A DNA stretch of 64,000 nucleotides from Clostridiales bacterium. Its GTDB lineage: Bacteria; Bacillota; Dehalobacteriia; UBA7702. Below are positions 8,991 through 56,747 of the stretch, in pieces. The stretch's first letter is position 1, and each line of letters starts with the position of its first letter. The stretch spans positions 9,869 through 73,868 of the forward strand of contig JAXGQI010000004.1 of NCBI GenBank assembly GCA_040766525.1, given 5' to 3'. The notes below the pieces were generated by a model. That model made no database searches. It saw nothing but the letters and a program-made list of their open reading frames with translations, and was not told the DNA's origin. The translations under genes were made by a program, and so were the position numbers.

Positions 8991-9938
8991 ATGTTAAAAA
9001 CACCGCTTTGCGAATTATTGAACATTGAATACCCCATTCTCCAGGGAGGTATGGCTTGGGTTGCCGACGCCGATCTTGCCGCTGCCGTCTCCGAAGGCGG
9101 TGGACTAGGCATCATCGCGGCTATGAATGCGGGCCCCGACTGGCTCCGTGGAGAAATCCGCAAAATCAAAGAGCGGACGAAGAAGCCTTTTGGCGTCAAT
9201 TTTATGTTAAAAAGCCCTTTCGCTGCGGTGGCAGCGGAAATCTTTGCGTAAGTAAAGGTGCCGGTGGTAACCACCGGCGCCGGCAGTCCCCGCGGCTATA
9301 TGCCGCACTGGCTGGAATCGGGCATCAAGGTAATACCTGTGATCCCTTCCGCAGCGATTGCCAAAGCAATGGAAAAAGCCGGAGCCCACGCCGTAATTGC
9401 CGAAGGGACCGAATCCGGCGGCCATATCGGCGAACTCACCACCATGGCCTTAGTGCCCCAGGTGTGCGACGCTGTGGATATTCCGGTGATCGCCGCCGGT
9501 GGAATCGGCGACGGCAGAGGCCTCGCAGCCGCATTGATGCTCGGGGCGGTGGGAATCCAAGCAGGTACCCGCTTTTTGACTTCCACCGAAGCCAATATCC
9601 ACCCCAACTATAAAAAGAAGATCATCAAAGCCTCGGATATCGATACGATTGCGACCGGCAGAAGGCTGGGGCATCCCGTCCGGGCTTTGAAAACCAGTTT
9701 TACAAGAGAATTCCATGTCAAAGAATTCGATCTTTCCGTATCCAATGAAGAGTTGGAAGCCTTCGGAACCGGGGCTTTGCGCCTGGCGGCCGAAGTGGGA
9801 GACGAAAAGAACGGTTGCTTCATGGCAGGGCAGATTGCCGGCATGATCCATGAGGAAATGCCCGCAGCCGCCATCATTCAACAACTGTGCCAAGAAGCGG
9901 AAGCATTATTAAAGGTGGCTGATCAATGGGTAAAATAG
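8991..9938 (+). CDS. fabK: Enoyl-ACP reductase II (FabK, nitronate-monooxygenase fold) interrupted by an in-frame TAA at 9249-9251
   Basis: ORFs 8991..9251 and 9258..9938 are in the same frame. Sequence reads ...GVNFMLKSPFAAVAAEIFA*VKVPVVTTGAGSP...; the stop falls where FabK proteins as I recall them have Glu (GAA). Confidence 0.8.
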
Positions 9939-14806: not shown

Positions 14807-14925
14807 AGCAACCCGCAAAAACCGCTCGCTTAAATCACCTATAGTAAGAGGTGGCGTTCCTTTTCCGGCACGCCCCTCTTTTCTTTTTATTTTTTCCTGG
14901 TATACTAGGATATGAGGTGAGAAAA

Positions 14926-16401
14926 ATGGATGAGAAAGATCGTATCCGCAAACTGGAAAATGAGAACCGCTTACTTTACGAAATCCTCGATAACATCCAT
15001 GAAGCCGTTTACGCCACCGACATGAATAAGCGCATTTTCATTTTTAACCACCAATTTGAGGTTTTGGAGGGACGCCCCAAAGAAGTCGTCCTCGGCAAAA
15101 CGGAAAACCAGGCCTATTATCGGGAAGGCTATAGCTTCACCGATTATGTTCTCGACCAGATCAAAAAGAAAAAGGGGCCGCTCCGCAATCAATGCTATTA
15201 CTATACCCCTCGCGGCGGCAAGAAAAACTATTTTTTCTATGACGCTTACCCGTTCTACAACGACGAAGGCGAGATCATCGCCATCTATTGCGTGGGCCGG
15301 AACATGGAACAGATCGGCACATTCTTCGCCGACACCTATGAACTTCAGCATCAAATCCTGCTGGATAAAAACCCCAAGAAAAAGCGGGCCCGTTACCTCC
15401 TAAAAGACATCATCGGAGAAAACCCCCTCTTAAAAGCGAATATTGAAACCGCAAAAAAAGTAGCCCGGGGAGATTCCTCCGTCATGATCATCGGGGAAAC
15501 CGGTACCGGTAAAGAATTATTTGCCTCGGGCATCCACAATGCCAGTTTGGTAGCGCAAGGGCCGTTCATCCCCATCAATTGCAGCGCGATACCGGAAACG
15601 CTGTTGGAAAGCCTCGTTTTCGGCAGCGTCAAAGGCGCTTTTACCGGAGCGACGAATTCTCCTGGTCTTTTCGAGCAGGCCAAGGACGGGACCATCTTCT
15701 TTGATGAGATCAATTCCCTGCCTTACGCTCTGCAAGGGAAACTGCTTCGAGTCATCCAAGAGAAAATCGTACGGCGCGTGGGGAGCAAAGAAGAAATTCC
15801 GGTCAATTGCCGCATCATCAGCGCCGCCAATGTGGACCCTTTTGATAAAAGCAATGGCGGCAGCATCCGCCAGGACTTACTTTTCCGCTTATCTGCGATC
15901 GTGATCCAGATTCCGCCGCTACGGGAACGGCCGGAAGATATCGAACCGCTGATCTGCCACTTCATCGCCAAGCACAATGAACGGGCAGGGAAATTCGCCC
16001 AGGACATCAGCGAAGAACTGCGCACCCTCTTTTATAATTATTCCTGGCCCGGCAATGTGCGGGAGATGGAAAACATCTTTGAGGGCGCCATGAACTTCTT
16101 GGAATTGAAAGATGAGATCATCGAAACGCGCCATATCCCGGAATACATCATCACCCGGCTAAAAGAAAAAAATGCAAACCCGGAACCCTATTACGGCGTC
16201 GGCGAGCAATTACCCAAGCCGGAACTGCCCCAATACAAACAAATGCTGAACAATACGAAGAAAAAGGAAAAACAGATCATCAAAGCCGCCCTGGAAAAAC
16301 ACAATGGCAATATGAACCAAGCTGCGATTGAAATGGGCATCAGCCGCCAAAGCCTGTACTACAAGATGAAAAAATATGGCTTCACGGAACCAAAAGTGTA
16401 A
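14926..16401 (+). CDS. Sigma-54-dependent transcriptional activator (PAS sensor + AAA+ + Fis-type HTH)
   Basis: ORF 14851..16401 trimmed to ATG 14926 behind GAGGTG. Walker A GETGTGKE, sigma-54 contact loop GAFTGA, C-terminal HTH NMNQAAIEMGISRQSLYYKMKKYG. Confidence 0.85.
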   Translation: MDEKDRIRKLENENRLLYEILDNIHEAVYATDMNKRIFIFNHQFEVLEGRPKEVVLGKTENQAYYREGYSFTDYVLDQIKKKKGPLRNQCYYYTPRGGKKNYFFYDAYPFYNDEGEIIAIYCVGRNMEQIGTFFADTYELQHQILLDKNPKKKRARYLLKDIIGENPLLKANIETAKKVARGDSSVMIIGETGTGKELFASGIHNASLVAQGPFIPINCSAIPETLLESLVFGSVKGAFTGATNSPGLFEQAKDGTIFFDEINSLPYALQGKLLRVIQEKIVRRVGSKEEIPVNCRIISAANVDPFDKSNGGSIRQDLLFRLSAIVIQIPPLRERPEDIEPLICHFIAKHNERAGKFAQDISEELRTLFYNYSWPGNVREMENIFEGAMNFLELKDEIIETRHIPEYIITRLKEKNANPEPYYGVGEQLPKPELPQYKQMLNNTKKKEKQIIKAALEKHNGNMNQAAIEMGISRQSLYYKMKKYGFTEPKV

Positions 16402-16549: not shown

Positions 16550-16565
16550 TGGCACTCTTTTTGCT
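16550..16565 (+). promoter_or_regulatory. Sigma-54 (-24/-12) promoter
   Basis: TGGCAC-tcttt-TTGCT matches the consensus TGGCAC-N5-TTGCW exactly. About 145 nt upstream of the BCCT transporter start. Confidence 0.7.
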
Positions 16566-16711: not shown

Positions 16712-18305
16712 GTGAGCCAAAAGATCGATAAAGTTTCCATAGGCGTTAGCCTCGCTTTACTTGCCACACTGGTGATATGCACCATTTTCGTTCCCGATGC
16801 CACCACAAGCGGTTTGGTGGCAGCCAAAAATGCCGTTGTAAAATGGCTCGGCTTTTATTTCATTTTGATGATTATCTTTATGCTTGGTTATAATTCCTGG
16901 CTTGCCTTATCAAAATATGGCAGCATTCGTTTAGGCAAGGAAAAACCGCAATACAATACTTTTGGCTGGATCGCCATGGTATTTTGTGCCGCAATGGGCA
17001 CCAGCATCCTCTACTGGTCCGCCATCGAATGGATGTACTATGTTCAATGGCCGCCCTTTGGCATGGAAGCTATGAGCGTTGAAATTGAGGAATTATCCAT
17101 GGCCTACAGCTTCTTCCATTGGGGCATTCCCGCATGGAGCGTTTATGCAACAGGGGTTATCCCCATTGCCTACCGCTACTTCGTTCGCAAAAAAGAAGGT
17201 CTCGGTCTTCAAGACGCCTGCGAAGGTGTTTTGGGTGAAAAAGCATACGGACCCATCGGCCGCATCATTACCATCGTCTTTGTTTTCGGTATTCTGGGCG
17301 GACTTACCATTTCCTATGGTACCGGCGTACCGATGCTCGCCAATAATTGTAGCAAATCTGGTCGGAACACCGGAAACCTTCCCTGTCTTCGTCGGTATCG
17401 TCATTGTGATCACCGTCGTATTTTCCTGGAGCGCTTTATCCGGGATCAAAAAAGGGATCCAGATGCTTTCCAAAATCACGACCATTATGGCTTTGGTATT
17501 AATTGGACTTTTCTTACTCCTTGGCAATGGCCTCTTCCAAGTCGAAAATACGGTCCAGGCCACCGGCTTAATGTTCCAACATTTTCCGGAAATGCTCTTC
17601 TATCTTGATCCGGTTCGCGATACCAATTTCCCCCAAGATTGGACAGTATTCTATTGGGCCTGGTGGCTCGGGTTGGCGCCGGTCATGTGGATTTTCATCG
17701 CTAAGATCTCTGCCGGCAGAAGCATCCGTTCCGTTATCCTCACCGTTATACTGGCCGGTTCCGCAGGGTCGATCGTTTTCTTCGGCAGCATCTCCAATTA
17801 CGGGTTAGGACAACAGCTCGCCGGCACTTTCGATTTTGTCAATATTATGGGTCAATTGGGAGAAAAACAAGCGATTTCCGCCGTTGTCATGTCATTACCT
17901 GCCGGGAAACTCATCCTTGGGCTATGGCTCCTAACCGGCTTCATCCTTCTGGTAACCACGATGGACTCCGCCGCCTATACTATGGGCGCTGCAACTGTCA
18001 TCGGGCTTGGAACCTGGGATGATCCGCCGAAAACATTGCGTGTCTTCTGGGCTGTGATGCTCACCATCACACCGCTATGCCTACTTTATGCCGGATCAAG
18101 TTTAAGCGGGTTCCAATCCGTCTTGATCCTAACCTCCATACCGGTATCCGCCTGTATTATCATGGCCATGGTCTCCTGCTCTAAATGGCTAAGAGAAGAT
18201 TATGGTCATAAAACAAGAGAAGAAATTCAATTGGAATTTATGACGGAAGATGATCGCAGGGTCTATGATGATAAACGGAAAAAAGATTTGGAAATGACAA
18301 TATAA
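16712..18305 (+). CDS. BCCT-family (betaine/carnitine/choline) transporter, apparent 1-nt frameshift near 17342
   Basis: ORFs 16622..17608 and 17079..18305 join as ...GTGVPMLA / IIVANLVGTPETFP.... Start set at GTG 16712 behind AAGGAG. BCCT signature region WTVFYWAWWLGLAPVMWIFIAKISAGRSIR. Confidence 0.8.
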
Positions 18306-18470: not shown

Positions 18471-19884
18471 ATGAGTTTCGATTATGTAAAAAAGGGATTT
18501 AGCCAAAATCCACGTAGCAACCTTGGATATCTTGGAAAGAATCGGCGTACGAAGCAAATCCCAAAGGTTTCTGGACAAGGCGGCGAGTTTGGGTCTACAG
18601 GTAAAAGACGGTACCATTTATTTTCCCAGGGAAACGGTGAATGAAGCAATCAAAAAAGCGCCTTCCCATTTTTCCACCTACGGACGGGACGACAAATACG
18701 AGATCAAATGGGGGGAAGGCCGCGCTTATAATCATACCTGCGTAGGGACCCCGTTTATCAAAGATTTAGCAACCAACGAAAAGAAAGCGGTTCACTACAG
18801 TGATTTGGAAAATTTCGTTCGTGTATCCGATGCGCTGCCCGCTACCGACATTATCTCCTGCATTTTCCCGCAGGATATCCCGGAACAGGCCGCGGTAACG
18901 GTACAAACGGCGGCAATGGTCAAAAATACGACCAAACCGTTGCGGATCTGCATTGAATCGGACCACGAAACCAAATATATCATTGAAGTCTTGGCGGCTG
19001 CCGTGGGCGGTTTGGAAGCATTGAAAGAAAAACCCATCGCTTATCTGGAAGTATCCCCCATCAGCCCCTTAGACTATGCCATCGGACCTTCCAACGGATT
19101 ACTGGATACGGTGGAAGCGGGACTGCCTTTAGGCATTATCCCCTGCCCGATGCTGGGAGCTACCGGGCCGATGACCTTGATCGGTACCGTAACGATGCAC
19201 AATGCGGAAATGCTGGCCGGCGTTGTTATCGCACAATTGATGCGTCCGGGCACTCCCGTCATCATGTCTCCCCGGGTTACTTTCATTGATATGCGTACTG
19301 CCATGGGGCTGTGGGCCGCACCGGAAATGGGCCTTGCCGCTACCGTTTCGATTCAAATGGCCAAATATTACGGGATTCCCAGCACGGCTACAGGCTTCTC
19401 CTGCGCTTCCAAAATTACCGACGAGCAAGCCGCTTTCGAATCCATGTACAATGCGCTCTTGCCGGCATTGGCAGGGGCGGATGTCATCGGGGCCTCCGGC
19501 TCTCTCGACAATGCCCTCGTTTCCTGCTACCGGAAATTGATTGTCGATAATGAGATCTCTTCTCTCATCCAGCGGGCCGTCAAAGGAGAAATCGTCGATG
19601 AAGACACCTTGGCCGTCGACGTCATTGACGAAGTGGTCCATGGCGAACGGAACTTCCTCGGCCATCCCCACACGCTGAAACATCTGCGTACAGAATTATG
19701 GCAACCGTTCCTCTCCGACCGGGCCACCTATGAAGGCTGGCAGGAAGGGGGCAGCACCACTTTTGAAGAACGGGCAAAGGTACTGGCAGAAAAATTACTC
19801 GCCAATCATACCGTCGAGCCTCTCCCGGCTCCCGCCATTAAAGCGATTGATGAAATCGTCGCCAGGGCAATAAAAGGAGAATAA
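18471..19884 (+). CDS. MttB-superfamily methyltransferase WITHOUT pyrrolysine (quaternary-amine:corrinoid methyltransferase type, MtgB-like); N-terminal homopolymer frameshift at about 18488-18496
   Basis: ATG 18471 behind AAAGGAG gives MSFDYVKK, then a frame change in the AAAAAAGGG run joins to LAKIHVATLDILERIGV (ORF 18523..19884). At the position equivalent to Pyl the sequence is TGFSCASKITD, with no stop codon. Confidence 0.8.
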
Positions 19885-19940: not shown

Positions 19941-21326
19941 ATGAAGAAATACTTAACCCGTTACGGAGATAACTATGCCGGTTATATGAGTGAATCCGAC
20001 ATCAGGGCCGACATCGAAAATGGGGTACAAGACGCAGCGGACCGGGGAAAAATTCCGCCGTTAAGTGCGGAAGATATGGAACTCTTATTTGAGATCATCA
20101 CTTCCCCGCAAAAGCTCGTTTCCGTCGAACCGGGAAAAGAAGTCGTCGTCTCTTTTGATGCTGGAACCTTAAAACTACCTGTTAGAAACGGCATCCCCAT
20201 GGATCGTCTCCAAGCGATTTTGACCCAGGAGCGGGCTTTGGCTTCAGACAGTATTGAACTGTGCCATGTGGATTACAGTTATAAACCGGTGAAAGCCATC
20301 ATCAGCGAAGAACGGCAAGCGATGGAACAGGCTCAGCTGATGACAACATTGCCGCTCCTCTACGGCGCTATGCCCAACCTCGGGCTCTACACAAAACCCG
20401 ATGGCCCCGTAGGAAACTGGTCGGAATTATTACCGGCAGGGAAAATCGATGAAGCAAGAGAAGCCCAGGATGAAGCTATCCAACATGCGATCAAAGATAT
20501 CGTCTTTGTTGCCTCGAATATGATTGAGAGCGGTGCCGACGGCATCAACCTCGACACCGTAGGCGCTTCCGGCGATGCGGATGTCAAGGCCAGCTTGGAA
20601 GCGGTGCGGATCTTAAAAGGGAAATATCCCCATATCGGTTTTGAAACCGGAATGGCCGGGGAATTCAATATGGGCATGCACGGTCTTTTAGAGATCGATG
20701 GGCAGCGTATCGCCGGTTTATACCCGCATGAGCAGGTGAAAATGGCGGAAAAATGCGGCGTTTCCATCTTCGGCATGGCCGTCAATACCAATAGTTCGAT
20801 GTCCCTCGCTTGGAATCTCGCCCGGGTCTGCACTTTTGCCAAAGAAGCGGTACGGGTAGCAGAAATCCCCGTCCATGCCAATGTCGGCATGGGGGTCGGC
20901 GGGATCCCTCTATCCATCATTCCCGCAGCCGACGCCGTATCCAGAGTGGACAAAGCGCTGGTGGAAATTGCCCATGTCGACGGGTTGTAGGTAGGCGCCG
21001 GAGATACTTTCAGGATGGCGGTCACCCATGAAGCCACCGCCGGAATGGGCGGCATCCGGGCAGCGGGAGACCTCGTCTTCCGGATGGAACTGGCCAAAAT
21101 GAAAATCGATCAAGCCAAAGCTTTTGTTGCGGAAAAATTGCATGTTGGCGTGGAGGACCTCGCCGATTGCGCCGTAATGAAAGATTTGAGAGAAGAATTG
21201 AATATCGGCACCACACAAAACCGGCCCAATGCCGGCGTAGGCATCCAAACGAAATTCCGTATCGCTGAGATTATGGGAATCCCCATCAACAGCGTTGAGA
21301 AATTCAAAAAAGAAGCTGGAATATAA
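19941..21326 (+). CDS. mtbB: Dimethylamine:corrinoid methyltransferase with in-frame UAG (pyrrolysine) at 20988-20990
   Basis: ORFs 19941..20990 and 21015..21326 are in the same frame. Sequence reads ...[50 protein letters not shown].... As I recall it, Methanosarcina MtbB reads VDGI-Pyl-IGVGDP...[14 protein letters not shown], collinear on both sides of the UAG. Confidence 0.85.
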
Positions 21327-21343
21327 TATAAGGAGGGAAACAT

Positions 21344-22815
21344 ATGGGTCTCAGAAACGATAGAGCCGGATATCAGCAACTTAGCGGCTTTGGAATCAAT
21401 ATTTTTAGCGAAGATGAACTCTACGCCCTCCATCTATCCACCTTGGAGGTCTTACAGGATGTCGGTATCCGCATTAACGCAGCGGACGCCAGAGAAGCCT
21501 TAGCAGCGGCAGGCGCCGTGGTCGATGAAAAAAACCGCATCGTCCATTTCCCCGGCTGGCTCGTAGAAGACGCGATTCGCACAGCGCCGAAGGCGGTTCT
21601 CTTCGCCGGCAGAAATCCCAAAAATGATTATATATTGGAAACCAACCGCGTGGGCTTTACCAATTTCGGTGAAGGCATCATGGTCAATGACATCTATACC
21701 GGAGAATACCGGCGCAGCACCAAAAAGGATACGGGGGACGCCGCTCGCTTAGTGGACGCTTTGGACGCCATTGATATCCACGAAAGAGCCCTTTCCGCCC
21801 AAGACGTACCGGCTCCCATCGCCTCGCTTCACGAGGTTGAAATCAATATCACCAATACTTCCAAACACATCGCCCAAGGCTGTAGCGGCAAAAAGAACCT
21901 GCAACGCATCTACAAAATGATGTGCAAAATTGCAGGTTCCGAAGAAGCCTATCGGCAACGCCCCACCTACAGCACCATCACCTGCCCGATCAGCCCCCTG
22001 CAATTGGCGCCGGAAAGTACCGACGTCATCATGGAGTCGGCTCGCCTCGGCGTACCGATCACCATTATCTCCATGGCCTTATCCGGCGGCACCACGCCGG
22101 TAACGCTGGCAGGAACGCTGATTACCCATAATGCGGAGGTTTTGGCGGCAATTGTTCTTTCCCAAGTCACCAAAAAAGGCGCCCCCATCGTTTACGGCAG
22201 TTCCACCACAATCATGGATCTGAAGTATACGACCTCCCCTGTGGGCTGCCCGGAATTGGGAATGATCAATGCGGCTGTTGCGAAAATGGCGCAGTTCTAT
22301 AACCTCCCCAGCTGGGTCGCGGGCGGCTAGGCAGACAGCAAAATCGCGGACGGCCAAGCGGCGCACGAAAAAACCGTCACCGCTCTGCTCCCGGCATTGG
22401 CAGGCGCCAATGTCATCTATGGGCTGGGCATGTTGGAACTCGGTATCACTTTAGATTTCGCGCAGCTGGTTATCGACAATGAAATCGCCGCCATGATCAA
22501 ATGGGCAGTCAAAGGAATCGATGTTGATGATTATGAAATGGCTGTTCATGTGATCAAGGAAGTCGGCGTAGCCGGAGAATTTATCACCCATCAGCATACC
22601 TATGACAATTTCAAGGCTGTACAATCCAGTACCCGCCTCTTTGACCGGCAGATGCAGGAAGGCTGGGAGGCTATGGGAGGAAAAGATTTGCTGGAAAGAG
22701 CAACGGAACGAGCAAAATACATTCTGGAAAATCATAAACCGGACCCGCTCCGCATGGAGCCGCCGCTTATATGGCAGAGATCATCGCGGAAGCCAAAGAG
22801 GAAGAGAACCTCTAA
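21344..22815 (+). CDS. mttB: Trimethylamine:corrinoid methyltransferase with in-frame UAG (pyrrolysine) at 22328-22330; additional apparent frameshift near 22745-22755
   Basis: ORFs 21344..22330 and 22397..22915 share a frame. Sequence reads ...[47 protein letters not shown].... The likely true C-terminus (HGAAAYMAEIIAEAKEEENL, stop at 22813-22815) is in another frame. Confidence 0.8.
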
Positions 22816-23162: not shown

Positions 23163-24566
23163 ATGTCCATTCAATTGATTATTATCATCATATATTTTGC
23201 CATCACGATCACCATCGGTCTGATCGCAAAGAAAAAATCCACCAGTTCCAACAGCTTCCATGGGGCAGGGCTCGGTTGCCTCATGTGTGTTGCGGCAGGG
23301 ACGGGAGAGTGGCTGGGAGGAACCGCCACTACAGGGGTTTCCGAATATGGTTTCCTCTATGGTATTTCCGGGGCCTGGTATACCATTGCCAATGGCCTTG
23401 GCGTCATCGTGCTGGCAATCTTTTTTGCGAAATTGTACCGCAGCCTGGATACGGTCACCGTTCCCGGCATCGTGGAAAAATATGTCGGCATTGATGCCCG
23501 CCTTGTTGCCAGCATTCTTTTGACCTTCGTTATGCTGGCAGTGGGCACTTCCCAATTATTGGCCGCCGGCGCATTGGGCGTCACGATCCTGGGTTTACCG
23601 TATGAAGCCTGCGTACTGATTTTGGGCATCGGCTTTATCGTCTATACCTTAGCCGGCGGTATGGTCGCCGTGGGCTATACCAATATTATGCACTTGATTA
23701 CGATGTACGGCGGCGTCTTGCTTGCGCTCTTCTTTGTAATCAAAGGCTTAGGCGGTCCGGAAGTTTTAAGCACGCAGCTGCCGGAAAGTTATTTCTCCAT
23801 GAGCAGCATCGGCATGACCAAGGTCTCCTCCTGGCTCATTGCCTCCGTTCTCGGGGCTTGTACGGCACAAGCGGGGATTCAACCCATCTTGGCGGCAAAA
23901 GATGTTCATGTAGCCAGAAAAGCCGCCTTCATCACCGCTTTTGTGGTGGCGCCTTTCGGCATTTTGACGGCATTTTTGGGCATGAGCGCAAAAATCGCCT
24001 TGCCGGGATTGGCCGACGCCAAGCAGGCTTTGCCCCAGTTGCTTCTGACTTTGGACCCCGTCATTGGCGGCCTCGTTTTGGCCGCGATCTTTGCGGCCAT
24101 CCTTTCGACGATCTCTCCGATCATCTTAGCCAGCGGCACGATGATCACGAAAGACATTTATCAACGCAGAATCAATCCGGAGGCCCCGGACACACAAGTT
24201 TTGAAGATTTCCAGGATCTTTACGGGACTCGCCGGCGTTGTCTGCATTATCTTAGCTCTGCTATTATATGGTTCTACAACCATTCTCGATATGGTCTACT
24301 TTGCTTACAGCCTCAGAGGCGCCATCTTCGTCGTTTTGATCTTTGCCATCTATTGGAAGAAGACGTCGCCGAAAGGCGCAACTTACGCCATGGTTTTCAC
24401 CGGGATCGTCGGCGCACTCTGGGTCATAGGGAAAAGTGTGGGCGGCAGTTATCCCATCCACCCCGCTTTCACGGAAACCTATGCTTCGGTATTAGCCGCC
24501 ACATTATCCACCATCGTATTCAGCTATCTGTTTAAGAAAGAGCCCGGCTCCATCACAAACAAATAA
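23163..24566 (+). CDS. Sodium:solute symporter (SSS) family transporter
   Basis: 467-aa polytopic membrane ORF; N-terminal region IIIYFAITITIGLIAKKK...GEWLGGTATTGVSEYGFLYGISGAWYTIANGLG is typical of SSS proteins. Confidence 0.8.
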   Translation: MSIQLIIIIIYFAITITIGLIAKKKSTSSNSFHGAGLGCLMCVAAGTGEWLGGTATTGVSEYGFLYGISGAWYTIANGLGVIVLAIFFAKLYRSLDTVTVPGIVEKYVGIDARLVASILLTFVMLAVGTSQLLAAGALGVTILGLPYEACVLILGIGFIVYTLAGGMVAVGYTNIMHLITMYGGVLLALFFVIKGLGGPEVLSTQLPESYFSMSSIGMTKVSSWLIASVLGACTAQAGIQPILAAKDVHVARKAAFITAFVVAPFGILTAFLGMSAKIALPGLADAKQALPQLLLTLDPVIGGLVLAAIFAAILSTISPIILASGTMITKDIYQRRINPEAPDTQVLKISRIFTGLAGVVCIILALLLYGSTTILDMVYFAYSLRGAIFVVLIFAIYWKKTSPKGATYAMVFTGIVGALWVIGKSVGGSYPIHPAFTETYASVLAATLSTIVFSYLFKKEPGSITNK

Positions 24567-24916: not shown

Positions 24917-25387
24917 ATGGATCCGTTGGCCATCTTGAACAGCGCCGCCCTACAGAAAGCCCAAACCATACAGGAATTACAAGAATGCAATGAAATTACC
25001 CTGCGCTTCGGGCTCTATCTTTCCGATCGGCAGATCAACGACCTTGTGGAAAAACGCTTCCAGGCGTTACAGGCCACCGGGCGCATCGAATTCGGCAAAG
25101 GTATCCTGAAAAAACTGCTTTGCACATTTGCCGATTCCCCTTATATCATGCAAGATCACTATGAAGAGATCATTTGGGAACTTTTAGATATCTTCTATTA
25201 TTTCAAGAATGAATCCCTGGATTTGATCGGCGATGACGATTTGATCGCCATCATGAAAGATCACTTTGATACCATCTGCCAAGGTTCCTTGGAATATTTG
25301 GGCGGCACGACCTTGGATGATCTTTGCCGGGATACCCGTTTCGGCCGTCTGGTGCAAGAAAGGGATAAATATCGCCATGACTTCTGA
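24917..25387 (+). CDS. Hypothetical protein (acidic, helical; no function I can assign)
   Basis: 156-aa ORF. Its stop overlaps the next gene's start (ATGACTTCTGA), implying translational coupling. Confidence 0.65.
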   Translation: MDPLAILNSAALQKAQTIQELQECNEITLRFGLYLSDRQINDLVEKRFQALQATGRIEFGKGILKKLLCTFADSPYIMQDHYEEIIWELLDIFYYFKNESLDLIGDDDLIAIMKDHFDTICQGSLEYLGGTTLDDLCRDTRFGRLVQERDKYRHDF

Positions 25388-26711
25388 TTTGACCAAACAA
25401 GACCATGCCCTTGCCGCTCCCCCCACTATCACTTTGGGCAGCGGAGAATATTTGGCCCAAGTGATTCAATACGGCTTCGCCCAGGAGATCTTGACCATTG
25501 AAGATCAAAGGGCGCTGCAGCAGCAGCTTTGGCTTTTGATGGAACAGCAAACGAAGCGCTATACCTGGGAAGAGAGCAGTTCGATCCCGGTGGAAACAGC
25601 GGAAGAACTCCTCACTTCCGTCCAAACGACCTTGGGCCGGGCCTTACGGAAGGAAGACGATCTCAAGGCCGCAGCCTGGCGCCTCAAAACCACGCCCCTA
25701 GCAAAACTGCTCACCGAGGGACAGCAAGAGCTGGAACTGGCCATCGCAAAAGGCAAACGCCTCCTCAAACAAGTGCAGGATTCCGCCCTCCCGATCAAGA
25801 ATCTCTCTTATCACGATACATTGAAAGAGCTGGATTCCTTTTTCCTCCGCTACGATCATCGGCTTTTTGCCCATGACATCCCCTGCTCCCTCGATTATCA
25901 GCTTTGCCGTCATATCCCGGGATTGCAAGGGATCGAATATATCAACGCTTATCTCTACAATTTATTGATCGAGAATACCTTTTGCCGTCATTTTGACAAA
26001 GAACATATAGAAAAGCTCCTTACGGCTTACCATCCCAGTTATCCGGTATTGCTGCTCAATATTTTTGAGCCGGTCTTTACGAGTGCCCTGGGGTTGACCT
26101 TATTAGAAAAAGAGATTTCCCCTTTGGAAATCCGGGAGGAAGACCGGAAGAAGTTAGAAATCCACTTCCGCAAACTCCCTATGGCGGAAGCGGAAGAGCG
26201 CCTAGCGGCAGCTTGCCAAAAACTTTGCCGCCTCCTTGGTATCGAAGACCAAGCATATTTAGATTCCGCAGCCAAAGAACTCTATACCCGCATCAAATCC
26301 ATCCCCGTTACAGAGGGGCTGGAAGCGGTTTTCCTCGCTTTTCGCGAGGCCGATTTCCCCAGCGACCCGCCCCACTATATCGACAATGACCCCATGGAAG
26401 ATAAGGCATTGCGGCACTTGATCGAAAAAATCCGCCGCTGTGATGACGTTGAAGAAAAGATCTCCCTGGTAAAGGGGAAAATCCATAGCCTGCAGGATCT
26501 CGTCGAAGTACTCGGCGCTTGCTTTTGGGAAGAAGAAAGCCTCGCTTTGTTTCGAACATTGGCAGATACGGAAATCGCCTTGCTATGCGACCATATTCGG
26601 GACAAGCGGGCATTCCAGCCGAATTGGGCCTCCGACACCCGCTGGGAAGACCGGCTGCTCTCCTATAGTAAAGCATGCAGAACAACGGAAACCGAACAGG
26701 ATTCTTTTTGA
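25377..26711 (+). CDS. Hypothetical protein (about 444 aa, helical, acidic)
   Basis: ORF 25266..26711 trimmed to ATG 25377 (MTSDLTKQDHALAAPP...), overlapping the upstream stop by 11 nt. Confidence 0.65.
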   Translation: MTSDLTKQDHALAAPPTITLGSGEYLAQVIQYGFAQEILTIEDQRALQQQLWLLMEQQTKRYTWEESSSIPVETAEELLTSVQTTLGRALRKEDDLKAAAWRLKTTPLAKLLTEGQQELELAIAKGKRLLKQVQDSALPIKNLSYHDTLKELDSFFLRYDHRLFAHDIPCSLDYQLCRHIPGLQGIEYINAYLYNLLIENTFCRHFDKEHIEKLLTAYHPSYPVLLLNIFEPVFTSALGLTLLEKEISPLEIREEDRKKLEIHFRKLPMAEAEERLAAACQKLCRLLGIEDQAYLDSAAKELYTRIKSIPVTEGLEAVFLAFREADFPSDPPHYIDNDPMEDKALRHLIEKIRRCDDVEEKISLVKGKIHSLQDLVEVLGACFWEEESLALFRTLADTEIALLCDHIRDKRAFQPNWASDTRWEDRLLSYSKACRTTETEQDSF

Positions 26712-29592: not shown

Positions 29593-31359
29593 CTATATTT
29601 TCCTTAATTCCTGCTGCTTTTTGTCAAATTCCTGTAAAAGTCTTAGGAAATCCATATGATTTTCTTGTCCTTCTGCGCCTTTGATCGACAACTCAAGGGC
29701 TCGGAGTTCATTTTCCAATTTATCCCGCTTGATTTTTCGAAGGCAATCTTCCAAAGCGCCGGCGCGGTCCCCTTCCGGAACTTCTTCCATCAAGAAGGAT
29801 AGGAGGTACTTTCTTGCTTCCTCTTCGGCTAAACCCGCCAAATCCCGGGCTTGCCAGGAATATTCCTCATAATGCTCCCGAATCAGGGACATCAACTTTG
29901 CCAGCGGGGAACTCTGTAAGAAATCCCAACCGATCTCTGCTTCCACGCGGTCGTAAAAATCCTTATCTTCCATAGCGAGGTGGCACAAGAAACGGGCCGC
30001 CCCATCGTCAATCTGCGCTGTCTTTTGCGGCTGATAGGAAAAATCCCGCCCGATAGCGTCTTTCCCTTCCGCCGCGCCCCGCCGAATGTCCGCCATGAGC
30101 AGTTCCTCGGCGATCTCCAACCTTTGCGCAATCATGCGTATATACTCATTTTTTTCCACTGCATCTTTCACGGAAAGCAGCGGCGTTAAAAGTGCCTTTA
30201 CGATATCGGCTTTGCCTTCCGCCCGATGAGCGTCATGTTCGGCAAAGGCGCGTTCCATCAAATATTCGATATGGTTCGGGGCATTCTCCCGTAATGATTC
30301 CCAAGCGGCGATCCCTTTTTTACGGAGAAAATCATCGGGATCCATTCCATCGGGAAGGGGCAATACCCGAATACGGAAATCCTGTTTCGCCAAGATCTCC
30401 ATCGAGCGCAAGGCGGCCTTTCGCCCCGCGCCGTCCCCGTCAAAGGCCAATAAAACCTTTTGCCCATAGCGCTTCAATAGTTTTGCCTGATCTTCGGTAA
30501 AAGCGGTCCCCAAGGGCGCTACGGCGTTTTTGAGGCCGAATTGATGGGCGCTCATGACATCGATATAGCCTTCCATCAAGATGGCTTCCCCGGTTTCCCG
30601 AATATGGGGCCCGGCCAAATGGAGGCCGTATAGATTGCGGCTTTTATTGAAAAGAGGCGTCTCTGCCGAATTCAAATACTTTGGCTCCCCTTCCCCGATG
30701 ATGCGGCCACCAAAAGCGATGATTTTGCCTTTCGGGTCGGCAATGGGGAACATCAGCCGCTTGCGAAAACGGTCAAACACTTTGCCGCTCTCCCCTTTTG
30801 TCACAACACCGGCACGCAAGAGCTCTTCTTCCTCGAAACCGGCTTTCCTGAGGTGGAGTTTTAATTCCTCCCAGCCCTCCGGCGCATACCCCAAGGCGAA
30901 AGCGTCGATCACCTCATCGGAAAGATCCCGCCGCTGCAAATACGCCCGGCAAGCCTGGGCCTTTCCCAGCTGCTCCTGGAAAAAACGGGCGGTCTCTTCA
31001 TTGACGTCAAAAAGGCGCCTTCTTTCATCCTGCCGCTTTTGCTCTCCCGGGGTCATTTCCTTTTCCGGTAAGGGCACGCCGGCGCGGGCCGCCAATTTTT
31101 CCGCCGCTTCGGGGAAAGTCAAATGCTCATACTCCATGAGGAAGTCAATGCAATTGCCCCCCTTTTGGCAACCGAAACAATAAAATATCTGCTTATCCGG
31201 GGAAACGGTGAAGGAAGGCGTGTCTTCCAAATGAAAGGGACAAAGCCCGACATAGTTGCGGCCCCGTTTCTTCATCATCACAACGGAGGAGATCAACTCC
31301 ACCAGATCGATGCGATCTCTGATTTCTTCGATTGTTTCCTGCGGAATATAGCCTTTCAC
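29593..31359 (-). CDS. dnaG: DNA primase
   Basis: 588 aa. Zinc finger CPFHLEDTPSFTVSPDKQIFYCFGC, TOPRIM region EGYIDV...FDGDGAG. Confidence 0.95.
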   Translation of the reverse strand: MKGYIPQETIEEIRDRIDLVELISSVVMMKKRGRNYVGLCPFHLEDTPSFTVSPDKQIFYCFGCQKGGNCIDFLMEYEHLTFPEAAEKLAARAGVPLPEKEMTPGEQKRQDERRRLFDVNEETARFFQEQLGKAQACRAYLQRRDLSDEVIDAFALGYAPEGWEELKLHLRKAGFEEEELLRAGVVTKGESGKVFDRFRKRLMFPIADPKGKIIAFGGRIIGEGEPKYLNSAETPLFNKSRNLYGLHLAGPHIRETGEAILMEGYIDVMSAHQFGLKNAVAPLGTAFTEDQAKLLKRYGQKVLLAFDGDGAGRKAALRSMEILAKQDFRIRVLPLPDGMDPDDFLRKKGIAAWESLRENAPNHIEYLMERAFAEHDAHRAEGKADIVKALLTPLLSVKDAVEKNEYIRMIAQRLEIAEELLMADIRRGAAEGKDAIGRDFSYQPQKTAQIDDGAARFLCHLAMEDKDFYDRVEAEIGWDFLQSSPLAKLMSLIREHYEEYSWQARDLAGLAEEEARKYLLSFLMEEVPEGDRAGALEDCLRKIKRDKLENELRALELSIKGAEGQENHMDFLRLLQEFDKKQQELRKI

Positions 31360-32869: not shown

Positions 32870-33250
32870 GTGAAAACATTCGACGCCACCACGCCGATCT
32901 ATCTACAAATCATGGACGACATCAAAAAACAAATCTGTGCCGGGCATCTGCATCCGGGAGAAAAACTCCCTTCCGTGCGTGATTTCGCCCTCTCCCAGGG
33001 AGTGAATCCCAATACGGTGCAGAAAGCTTTTAGCCAATTAGAGCAATCGCAACTGCTCTTCGCCAATCGGACAAACGGACGCTTTGTTACAGAAGATAAG
33101 GAGTTGATCACACAGATGAAAAATGAAATGGCCACCGGTTATGTCACGGAGTTTCTCAACCGAATGGCAGAAATCGGTTATCAAAAAGACCATGTCATCA
33201 GCTTATTAGAAGAATATGCCAAAGGAGAGGATACCGATGTATACAATTGA
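32870..33250 (+). CDS. GntR-family (YtrA-like) transcriptional regulator
   Basis: ORF 32828..33250, GTG 32870 behind GAGGTG. PIYLQIMDDIKKQICAGHLHPGEKLPSVRDFALSQGVNPNTVQKAF. Confidence 0.8.
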   Translation: MKTFDATTPIYLQIMDDIKKQICAGHLHPGEKLPSVRDFALSQGVNPNTVQKAFSQLEQSQLLFANRTNGRFVTEDKELITQMKNEMATGYVTEFLNRMAEIGYQKDHVISLLEEYAKGEDTDVYN

Positions 33251-33932
33251 AGCATTGAATTTATCTAAACGATATGGGCAGATCCAGGCTTTGGACTCCC
33301 TCAATTTTACGCTTGAACAGGGGAAAATCATCGGGCTTTTGGGCCCCAACGGCAGTGGCAAAACCACTCTGCTGAAGCTTATCAACGGTCTCCTTACCCC
33401 CAGCCAAGGGCAGATCTTGGTCAATGGCCAAGCACCGGGAGACGAATCGAAAAAGCTCATTTCCTATCTGCCGGAAAGGACCTATCTCAATAATTGGATG
33501 AAGGTTCGGGACATCGTTGCCTTTTTTGCCGATTTCTACCCCGATTTCGATCGCGCCAAAGCCCAAGAAATGCTCCGAGAGATGGATATTGATGAAAATC
33601 AGAAATTGAAGACCTTATCCAAAGGCACGAAAGAAAAAGTACAGCTGATCCTCGTCATGTCCCGCTCCGCCCTTTTTTACCTGTTGGATGAACCCATCGG
33701 TGGCGTTGACCCGGCGGCGCGGGATTATATCTTAGACACGATCTTGACGAAATATAATCCGGAGGCATCGATCTTGATCTCCACCCATCTCATTACCGAT
33801 GTAGAAAGGATTTTCGACGATATTATCTTCCTCAATAAGGGGCGTATCGTCTTGGCCGGCAATGTCGACGATATCCGGGCCCAAGAAGGAAAATCGATTG
33901 ACGCATTGTTTAGGGAGGTATTCAAATGTTAG
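33237..33932 (+). CDS. ABC transporter ATP-binding protein
   Basis: ATG 33237 behind AAAGGAGAGG. Walker A GPNGSGKTT, signature LSKGTKEKV, Walker B FYLLDEP. Confidence 0.9.
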   Translation: MYTIEALNLSKRYGQIQALDSLNFTLEQGKIIGLLGPNGSGKTTLLKLINGLLTPSQGQILVNGQAPGDESKKLISYLPERTYLNNWMKVRDIVAFFADFYPDFDRAKAQEMLREMDIDENQKLKTLSKGTKEKVQLILVMSRSALFYLLDEPIGGVDPAARDYILDTILTKYNPEASILISTHLITDVERIFDDIIFLNKGRIVLAGNVDDIRAQEGKSIDALFREVFKC

Positions 33933-37388: not shown

Positions 37389-37856
37389 CTATTTATGATA
37401 CGGTTCGTTTTTAATGATCTTCTGGCAGCGATAGATTTGTTCCAAGAGAAAAACCCGGATCAATTGATGCGGAAAAGTCGCCTTGCCAAAAGAGAGCTTA
37501 CATTGGCAGCGGCTTTTGACTTCGTCACTCAAACCGAGAGACCCACCGATCAAAAAAGCAATTTCTTTTCCTTCCATATTACCCTTTTCTTCTAAGAGCA
37601 TTGCCAATTCGGGAGAGCTAAGCGCATTCCCCTCCAAATCCAGGGCAATGGCATAAACATCACGATCAAGATGACGAAGGAAAAAGGCGCCTTCTTTCGC
37701 CAATACCCGGTTGGGATCCCCCATATTGGCATCTTCTTCCGGGCCCTCCATGATCTCCAGCTTGGCATAAGGCTTGATGCGCTTTTCATAATCGTTTAAG
37801 GCCGCTTTCAAATAGGCTTCTTTGATCTTGCCAACGGCAAGGACTTTGACTTTCAT
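37389..37856 (-). CDS. rlmH: 23S rRNA (pseudouridine1915-N3)-methyltransferase
   Basis: 155 aa SPOUT protein; KVLAVGKIKEAYLKAALNDYEKRI...FLIGGSLGL...LSFGKATFPHQLIRVFLLEQIYR. Confidence 0.9.
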   Translation of the reverse strand: MKVKVLAVGKIKEAYLKAALNDYEKRIKPYAKLEIMEGPEEDANMGDPNRVLAKEGAFFLRHLDRDVYAIALDLEGNALSSPELAMLLEEKGNMEGKEIAFLIGGSLGLSDEVKSRCQCKLSFGKATFPHQLIRVFLLEQIYRCQKIIKNEPYHK

Positions 37857-48669: not shown

Positions 48670-49300
48670 TTAACGGGAATAACCTTCGACAATCAGATGT
48701 TCCTGAATCGGGATATCGATATCTTCCCGTTTGGGCATATCAACTACTTTGACGGCAAGGGCTTCTTTATCCAGCTCAACCAAGCAGGAACGGATTTTAC
48801 AGCTGCCAATTCACCGATTGCAGCAAACTTTGTGGATTTCTTGCTCTTTTCTGCAACGGAGATGATCTGACCTTGCTTTACAAGGAAGGAAGGGATATTG
48901 ACCTTTCTCCCATTGACTTGATAATGCCCATGAAGAACAAGCTGCCGAGCTTCCGCACGGGAATTAGCCAAACCTGCACGATAGACCACATTATCCAAGC
49001 GCCGTTCCAGCAAAACCAAAAGGTTTTCCCCGGTAACACCGCCTTGACGAGCGGCCTTTTCATAATAAAGCCTAAATTGCTTTTCTAATACCCCGTAGAT
49101 ACGGCGGGCTTTTTGTTTTTCTCTCAATTGGAGGCCATATTCGGAACGCTTTTTCCGCGCTGCCGACTGTCCATGTTGCCCAGGAGCATAAGCCCTTTTA
49201 TTCACCGCGCATTTATCACTGTAGCAGCGGTCACCTTTGAGGTAAAGTTTTCGCCTTCACGCCGGCAAAGCCGACATACGGATTCTGTATAACGTGCCAT
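48670..49300 (-). CDS. rpsD: 30S ribosomal protein S4, needing two 1-nt frame corrections
   Basis: ATG 49300 gives [17 protein letters not shown], shifts (A-run) into [27 protein letters not shown] (ORF 48744..49205), then shifts again near 48785 into [34 protein letters not shown]. 631 nt, consistent with two 1-nt deletions. Confidence 0.85.
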
Positions 49301-50498: not shown

Positions 50499-50767
50499 TC
50501 AAGTTTCCAAAGAAAGCTTTTTGATAAATCCTCTCACTTCCGAATCTTGGGGGGTAATCCCCGCTTCAAGTCTTCCCGGATCTTACCGGAATCTTTCAAG
50601 GTTCCCTGGATGTGTTTAAGGTTCTTTTTCTTCGGTCGCGCAAAGGTCTTCTTTTTCCCGTCAACAAGAAAGCTCAAATCTCCCTTAATTGCGATAATAA
50701 TATAGAAACTTCCCTTATCGCGTCCTTGTTTTGAGAGGACCACTTGACCTACATGATGATCATTCAT
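50499..50767 (-). CDS. KOW-domain RNA-binding protein (between map and infA); probable frameshift near 50525
   Basis: ORF 50534..50767 (MNDHHVGQVVLSKQGRDKGSFYIIIAI...). The C-terminal AGITPQDSEVRGFIKKLSLET reads better in a shifted frame ending at 50499-50501. Confidence 0.7.
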
Positions 50768-50779
50768 GTCTGCACCCCA

Positions 50780-51521
50780 CTAAAGCCTTGTCAAGATCTC
50801 AGGCTCCCCATCCGCCATGATGGCGATGGTGTTTTCATAGTGGGCAGCAGGAGAACCATCCTTCGTCACCAAGTCAACCATCTTTTAACACCTTGATCGT
50901 ATAGTGTCCCATGGCTACCATGGGCTCAACGGCAATGGTCAGACCAGTTCCATTCTCAGCCCCCCTGCCGCGCATACCATAATTTGGTACGCTGGGGTCC
51001 TCGTGCATATTTTGCCCGATCCCATGACCCACGAGATCCCGAATGACAGAATAGCCATTCTGTTCCACATGGGCTTGGATCGCATGCCCCAAATCTCCCA
51101 AACGGTTTTTGGCTACCGCCTGCTTCATGCCTTCATAGAAGGATTCCTCGGTGACTTTGACGGAGTCGTGCCTTCTCGTCGCTGATCTTACCTACCGGAA
51201 AAGTCCGGCAGCATCTCCCACATAACCACGAAAGGTGGCGCCGGTATCGACGCTGATAATATCCCCCTCCTGCAAAATACGGTGCTTATTGGGGATACCA
51301 TGGACAATCTCTTCATTGATCGAGGCACAAATACTGGCAGGAAAGCCTTGAAACCCTTTAAAAGTAGGATCGGCATGACACTTCCTAATATGCTTTTCTG
51401 CCGCTGTATCCAGCTCATAAGTGGAGATCCCCGGTTGAACCAGTTCCTCCATAGACGCTAAAACTTCCGCAACGATCCTACCCGCATCCCGCATAGCAGC
51501 TATCTGTTGCTTCGTTTTTAA

Positions 51522-51529: not shown

Positions 51530-53441
<1,912 letters not shown>

Positions 53442-56204: not shown

Positions 56205-56747
56205 TTAGTTCTGCGCAAACGGCATTCCCATCAAAGTAAACAATTCCTTTGCTTCTTCATCGGTTTTTGCGGTGGTGGTGAAGCAAACCTCCAAAACCCC
56301 GCAGCCGGTCGATTTTATCATAGTCGATTTCAGGAAAAACCAATTGGTCTTTCAGGCCAAGAGAATAATTGCCGCGGCCGTCAAAAGCCGTAGGGGATAC
56401 CCCCTTAAAGTCTCTTACCCGGGGTAATGCTACTGCAATCAGTCTGTCGACAAATTCATACATTCTGTCCCCGCGCAAAGTAACTTTGCAGCCAATGGGC
56501 ATGCCGGTTCTCACTTTAAAAGCAGCAATGGATTTTTTCGCTTTGGTAATTACCGGTTTCTGACCGAAATTGACATCAAATCCGCTACTGCAGCATCCAA
56601 TGCTTTGGGATTGGCAATGGCTTCGCCAAGACCCATATTGATCACCACTTTGCTCAATTTGGGAATTTCCATCACATTTTCATACTGAAATTTTTCTTTG
56701 AGAGCGGGAATAATCTCATTGGCATACTTTTCTTTCAGTCTCGCCAC
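56205..56747 (-). CDS. rplE: 50S ribosomal protein L5, two compensating frame disruptions (about 56555 and 56290)
   Basis: ORF 56550..56747 ([20 protein letters not shown]...), middle ORF 56257..56514 ([24 protein letters not shown]...), and the tail [28 protein letters not shown] in the original frame. 543 nt is a multiple of 3. Confidence 0.85.

Follow-up and report, generated by a model that had tools for sequence, protein, structure and literature searches.

Two probable pyrrolysine-encoding methylamine methyltransferase genes in a gene cluster of an uncultured Bacillota bacterium

Comparison with the closest described systems

The dimethylamine and trimethylamine methyltransferases of Methanosarcina barkeri, MtbB and MttB, contain pyrrolysine (Pyl), the catalytic residue of these enzymes, at a position specified by an in-frame UAG codon. 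A stretch of 64,000 nucleotides (nt) from the metagenome-assembled genome (MAG) of a Clostridiales bacterium (GCA_040766525.1, contig JAXGQI010000004.1; the whole stretch is referred to as the window) carries an mtbB and an mttB gene with a single in-frame UAG each. Comparisons with known families, structures and homologous loci indicate that both are very probably genuine Pyl-encoding genes and that their host is an uncultured, spore-forming member of the Bacillota related to Candidatus (Ca.) Formimonas warabiya.

MttB of M. barkeri (PDB 7xcl, 7xcm and 7xcn) and its MtbB belong to the same families as the window proteins (TIGR02369 and TIGR02368, respectively) and have one UAG at the identical column, and the alignment with 7xcl spans nearly the full length of the window MttB. 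However, the host here is a bacterium, in which the methyl groups would presumably be delivered to tetrahydrofolate rather than to coenzyme M. The archaeal operons have a corrinoid-protein gene beside the methyltransferase gene, whereas none is located near the window genes. Of the predicted PYLIS helices, only a part is retained here.

Pyl-type mtbB and mttB genes together with a pyl cassette are already documented in relatives of the Peptococcaceae, and the present locus changes no concept. The closest complete genome is that of Ca. Formimonas warabiya DCMF (CP017634, locus L003), which encodes pylT, pylSc, pylSn, pylBCD and 23 Pyl methylamine methyltransferase genes, with one pyl cluster (PMC6778437). 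Proteomics detected seven Pyl-MttB proteins of Ca. Formimonas warabiya (PMC9768040). The MtbB of this organism is 88% identical to that of the window and has the same TAG, and a Pyl-type mttB, a non-Pyl paralogue and the gene of a PAS-domain sigma-54 activator lie nearby. In contrast to the window, where mtbB abuts mttB, a separate corrinoid-protein gene follows each methyltransferase gene of Ca. Formimonas warabiya, and the genes are arranged in a different order.

The locus on a 699-kb contig of the MAG GCA_032941855.1 (L043) is collinear with the window from fabD/fabG/fabF to the gene of a sodium:solute symporter (SSF), retains both TAGs and encodes an MtbB and an MttB that are 91.8% and 88% identical to those of the window. 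The MAG Clostridiales bacterium AnMBR.bin323 (L002) shows the same order from an aminotransferase gene to the SSF symporter gene and also has both TAGs. The unusual arrangement of adjoining mtbB and mttB genes with the SSF symporter gene after them is common to the window, L002 and L043. The glycine betaine methyltransferases MtgB of Desulfitobacterium hafniense (2qne) and 9yce resemble only the neighbouring MttB-superfamily paralogue, which has a Ser sense codon in place of the UAG.

Positions of the UAG codons in mtbB and mttB

The mtbB gene, encoding the [dimethylamine--corrinoid protein] Co-methyltransferase, extends from 19941 to 21326 on the forward strand. Its ATG at 19941 is preceded by a strong Shine-Dalgarno sequence (AAGGAGG), and its 461 codons are followed by a TAA stop at 21324-21326. 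The in-frame TAG read as Pyl is codon 350 (20988-20990, forward strand), embedded in the codons GTC GAC GGG TTG TAG GTA GGC GCC GGA GAT (VDGL-TAG-VGAGD). The Pfam profile Dimeth_Pyl (PF09505) is matched at positions 2-353 by the part upstream of the TAG and at 355-462 by the downstream part, leaving the TAG at column 354 as the sole skipped column. The TAG also coincides with the UAG in the Rfam model of archaeal mtbB, which places it at the Pyl column. The conceptual protein, with X at the TAG, scored 484.4 bits over positions 4-465 of the 466-position NCBIfam MtbB profile TIGR02368, above the equivalog cut-off of 369.1 bits, and its N-terminal part is 100% identical to the database protein P0001. 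A search of the PDB with MtbB found no solved MtbB structure, the matches being spurious PPR repeats; the comparison of mtbB with the archaeal gene is therefore based on the Pfam, NCBIfam and Rfam models.

Two further observations were made on the mtbB sequences. Codon 358 of the window gene (AGG, 21012-21014) encodes the Arg of GDTF-R-MAV, a position occupied by Gly in L043 and all close relatives, and could be either a real substitution or a base error. For the database MtbB relative P0040 (468 amino acids (aa), 101 member sequences from Logan), the sequence on record shows Gln in place of Pyl (VDGF-Q-VGVGD), owing either to translation with a code that assigns TAG to Gln or to a true sense codon.

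The mttB gene, encoding the [trimethylamine--corrinoid protein] Co-methyltransferase, extends on the forward strand from an ATG at 21344, with a strong Shine-Dalgarno sequence, to a TAA at 22813-22815, and comprises 490 codons after repair of a 1-nt deletion near 22749. Its in-frame TAG read as Pyl is codon 329 (22328-22330, forward strand), located within the codons GTC GCG GGC GGC TAG GCA GAC AGC AAA (SWVAGG-TAG-ADSK). The Pfam profile MTTB (PF06253) is matched at positions 31-337 upstream of the TAG and at 341-480 downstream. A phmmer search against the PDB placed the X of the window MttB opposite X334, the Pyl residue of M. barkeri MttB (7xcl_A; E = 1e-120, residues 4-480), so that the mttB UAG likewise falls on the Pyl column; the residue at this position is K in the 7xcm sequence. 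The window context VAGG-X-ADSK corresponds to PSYVAGS-X-SDAKVPDDQAGHEKT (VAGS-X-SDAK) in M. barkeri. The repaired 490-aa protein, with X at the TAG, scored 695.9 bits with the NCBIfam profile of Pyl-type MttB, TIGR02369, above the equivalog cut-off of 525 bits.

An earlier note, made from the letters of the window, had proposed that mtbB reads through the TAG at 20988-20990 and mttB through that at 22328-22330, as the signature of genetically encoded pyrrolysine. The positions and frames of both TAGs are as described there, and the proposed signature is supported by the column match, the family scores, the conservation and the selection. Family-typical sequence had been described there as continuing for more than 100 codons past each UAG, in agreement with the 111 in-frame codons of mtbB and the 139 of mttB over which the Pfam matches continue. 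In mttB these 139 codons are followed by a frameshift and about 22 codons in another frame. Thus, the statement that both genes keep one frame upstream and downstream of the UAG holds except for the last ~22 codons of mttB. Similarly, the span of 21344-22815 given for mttB does contain the gene, but its 1472 nt are not a multiple of three, and the frameshift had been missed.

Conservation and selection across homologues

A scan of species-representative genomes, seeded with peptides from the window MtbB (best match 88% identical), yielded 42 loci with Pyl-type mtbB in about 40 species-representative bacterial genomes of the Bacillota and Desulfobacterota. The description of encoded pyrrolysine as rare in bacteria is therefore true only in a relative sense. 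In each of the 41 full-length bacterial homologues of mtbB, the TAG occupies the same codon, and 111-114 conserved in-frame codons follow. All mttB orthologues from the two phyla (at least 47% identity) show the context (W/F)VAGG-TAG-(A/G)D(S/N)K, followed by 158-167 codons, and the MttB paralogues in the related loci have a Ser, Cys, Thr, Ile, Val or Leu codon at the Pyl position. Since the TAGs are common to all homologues, they are not errors. The great majority (>100) of the best 120 database relatives of MtbB are exactly 349 aa long because gene callers stopped at the same UAG, which bears out the earlier remark that standard gene callers split such genes.

Comparisons of the window with its relatives gave ratios of nonsynonymous to synonymous substitution rates (dN/dS) of 0.03-0.12 after the TAG. 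The sole computable value before the TAG is 0.05, and third-position changes dominate there too. Between the window and locus L001, the changes after the mtbB TAG are distributed over codon positions 1, 2 and 3 as 11, 4 and 55. The third-position bias and the low dN/dS after the TAG indicate that the downstream parts have been translated throughout the divergence of the lineage. The downstream segments are similar to the C-termini of MtbB and MttB, being family-typical in sequence and subject to the same purifying selection as the upstream parts.

The segments following the UAG codons

The segments following both UAG codons match the Rfam PYLIS models (RF02509, RF02510). In mtbB, PYLIS_2 matches 20988-21087 (forward strand) with 56.8 bits against a gathering threshold of 36, and in mttB, PYLIS_3 matches 22328-22427 (forward strand) with 80.4 bits against a threshold of 38. 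Both matches cover model positions 1-100, with model position 1, the UAG, placed on each window TAG. The PYLIS_2 alignment of mtbB is ungapped over 100 nt, and the Rfam consensus translates to the archaeal post-Pyl peptide; the match is one of sequence homology to the archaeal mtbB segment. Folding analysis gave z-scores of -1.18 for the PYLIS_2 segment and -1.00 for the PYLIS_3 segment, and the RNAalifold consensus of the post-UAG segment has an energy of -5 kcal/mol. Placement of the Rfam mtbB structure on the window produces about 11 non-canonical pairs. When the same structure was placed on 29 bacterial sequences, 72% of the cells pair compared with 36-47% in slid controls, although one of the pairs is formed in none of them and the comparison is confounded by coding constraint. 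The better-kept PYLIS helix overlies the invariant AGDLV codons. Evidence for a functional PYLIS hairpin after the UAG is weak, and such an element is not supported.

Decoding genes, frameshifts and alternative explanations

Several observations weigh against the assignment of mtbB and mttB as Pyl-encoding genes. Searches of the 64-kb window with ARAGORN and the Rfam tRNA model detected no pylT and only one tRNA, a tRNA-Met. ARAGORN finds tRNA-Pyl(CUA) next to mtbB in the related loci L019 and L025, a positive control that makes the negative result meaningful for this 64 kb. No pylS, pylB, pylC or pylD is present among the scanned open reading frames (ORFs) of the window, which encode proteins of fatty-acid synthesis, an aminotransferase, RpoD, DnaG, proteins of pyrimidine synthesis, ribosomal proteins and similar products. 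A corrinoid-protein (B12-binding) gene is also missing from the window (tblastn, best E ~1). Such a gene adjoins mtbB in 36 of the 42 related loci (for example, at 11411-12052 in L003 and 11481-12125 in L013), and none is present at the L002 and L043 clusters either. Furthermore, TAG ends ordinary genes of the window, namely dnaG (29593-31359, reverse strand), an ABC ATPase gene (33216-33932, forward strand), rlmH (37389-37856, reverse strand) and fabK (9258-9938, forward strand). In three of these four genes a second in-frame stop is located 0 to 22 codons downstream (0 codons on in dnaG and two in the ABC ATPase gene). Decoding of UAG would thus be ambiguous rather than reassigned, as is the case in other Pyl users. 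Finally, mttB lacks one nucleotide near 22749 compared with L043, about 22 codons before its stop.

As a result of this last defect, the literal mttB frame continues to 22915, and the family-typical C-terminus (...PHGAAAYMAEIIAEAKEEENL / ...HKPDPLPHGAAAYMAEIIAEAKEEENL, each up to the stop) is encoded in another frame from about 22750 to 22815. Two neighbouring genes have similar defects. The span of the paralogue, 18471-19884, measures 1414 nt, and its ATG at 18471 is out of frame with the ORF at 18523-19884, two nucleotides being missing at 18496 beside an A6 run; the earlier note had correctly located the sense sequence TGFSCASK at the Pyl spot of this gene but had overlooked the frameshift. 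The BCCT-family transporter gene is split near 17349 by one extra nucleotide relative to L043. Throughout the cluster genes, the window and L043 differ by indels only at 17349, 18496 and 22749, with no others in the ~2.9 kb of mtbB and mttB. Essential genes of the window are also broken by indels of 1-2 nt: rpsD (48744-49300) is frameshifted twice, and rplE (56257-56747), map (50534-51494) and secY (52185-53241) are frameshifted as well. In L043, by comparison, the BCCT transporter (530 aa, also intact in L002), the paralogue (471 aa) and MttB (490 aa) are intact and both TAGs are kept; L002 carries frameshifts of its own. Because rpsD, rplE, map and secY are broken alike and the syntenic L043 is intact, assembly errors probably account for all three frameshifts of the cluster. 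Real pseudogenisation was rejected as their cause in view of the same broken ribosomal and secretion genes and the intact L043. Given its many indels, the apparent pseudogenes of the source MAG are not trustworthy.

Three alternatives to Pyl-encoding genes were considered. The two genes would be relics if the pyl cassette had been lost, leaving mtbB and mttB as truncated pseudogenes that end at the UAG. Such decay is very unlikely, although it would account for the lack of pyl genes, pylT and a corrinoid-protein gene in 64 kb and for the frameshifts in mttB, the paralogue and the BCCT gene. As the frameshifts also hit rpsD (twice), rplE, map and secY, they have the character of sequencing artefacts, and mtbB has no indel compared with L043, while mttB has only the one near 22749. 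Strong purifying selection after each TAG is not the pattern of relics. In addition, pyl genes are usually not found beside every Pyl methyltransferase gene, as illustrated by the 23 genes and one pyl cluster of Ca. Formimonas warabiya (PMC6778437).

If UAG were instead a true stop, the N-terminal fragments would act alone or the downstream pieces would be translated separately. Gene callers do annotate products of 349 and 328 aa, and an ATG is present at 21015, eight codons past the mtbB TAG. However, the codons immediately following the TAGs (VGAGD..., ADSK...), which lie ahead of any start codon, are conserved in frame among all homologues, and the chain of the solved MttB structure runs through residue 334. 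Together with the established catalytic role of Pyl in these enzymes, this makes a true stop highly improbable. It is hardly conceivable that the TAGs are sequencing errors or that another suppressor reads UAG as a standard amino acid. The window does contain many indel errors, and P0040 has Gln at the Pyl column; however, the same TAG is present in 41 independent mtbB assemblies, in all mttB orthologues and in the high-quality L043, and the errors of the window are indels, not substitutions to TAG.

Proposed decoding and function

For genuine Pyl-encoding genes, the steps of expression and catalysis would follow the established knowledge of the Pyl system. The single UAG per mRNA would be decoded by Pyl-tRNA(CUA) in competition with release factor 1. 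PylBCD would synthesize the pyrrolysine with which PylS charges this tRNA, and the genes of all these components would lie elsewhere in the genome. The predicted products, MtbB of 461 aa and MttB of 490 aa, would both be full-length and carry Pyl in the active site, and they would pass methyl groups from dimethylamine and trimethylamine, respectively, to corrinoid proteins that would also be encoded elsewhere. The Pyl side chain would bind and activate the methylamine for methyl transfer to the Co(I) of the corrinoid. A second methyltransferase would then transfer the methyl group further; its presumed destination in bacteria is tetrahydrofolate and the Wood-Ljungdahl pathway.

The locus adds an uncultured Bacillota lineage that can probably demethylate trimethylamine and dimethylamine, which bears on the turnover of trimethylamine in anoxic habitats and guts. 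As a case of natural genetic-code expansion, it is of value mainly for annotation, since standard gene-calling software ends both genes prematurely at the UAG.

Gene cluster and predicted sigma-54 control

The cluster has the order sigma-54 activator gene, promoter, BCCT transporter gene, non-Pyl MttB paralogue, mtbB, mttB and SSF symporter gene, all on the forward strand. The activator gene (14851-16401) encodes a sigma-54-dependent transcriptional activator with PAS, AAA+ and helix-turn-helix (HTH) domains (Pfam Sigma54_activat, PAS and HTH_8) and is syntenic in L002 and L043. The sigma-54 (-24/-12) promoter consensus TGGCACTCTTTTTGCT (TGGCAC-N5-TTGCT) at 16550-16565 on the forward strand is the only match without mismatch in the window and lies between the activator gene and the BCCT and methyltransferase genes. 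In 17 related loci, this consensus also occurs a short distance before mtbB, the paralogue or the BCCT gene (for example, at 9942-9957 in L005, 9947-9962 in L017 and 6596-6611 in L043). This distribution suggests that sigma-54 control of bacterial Pyl methyltransferase genes is conserved.

The BCCT-family transporter gene (16712-18305) consists of two ORFs that match the Pfam BCCT profile at 4-206 and 206-485, its start being deduced from L002. The paralogue (18471-19884, Pfam MTTB) is a non-Pyl member of the MttB superfamily. Its Pyl column is occupied by Ser, with TGF-S-CASK aligned to AGG-X-ADSK of MttB, and the protein is 32% identical to the window MttB. It scored 378.5 bits with TIGR02369, below the cut-off of 525, and stayed under every specific NCBIfam cut-off. 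The glycine betaine methyltransferases 9yce and 2qne are its best PDB matches (E = 1e-66), and its substrate may be a quaternary amine. Conservation of the cluster ends with the SSF symporter gene (23163-24566, Pfam SSF; syntenic in L002 and L043).

The conserved cluster suggests an amine-induced operon. A doubtful extension of this suggestion is that the cluster of the small clade formed by the window, GCA_032941855.1 and AnMBR.bin323 could constitute one inducible route, with uptake of a quaternary or tertiary methylamine and its stepwise demethylation from the quaternary amine or trimethylamine to dimethylamine and monomethylamine by three methyltransferases sharing a corrinoid protein encoded elsewhere. 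If true, it would represent a bacterial counterpart to the methylotrophic methanogens as a trimethylamine sink.

A plasmid origin of the window was rejected, as no match was obtained in PLSDB and chromosomal housekeeping genes are present. Just downstream of the cluster, the window has a DUF6323 and DUF6179 gene pair (24917-26711), and L043 has GntR and ABC transporter genes at this place.

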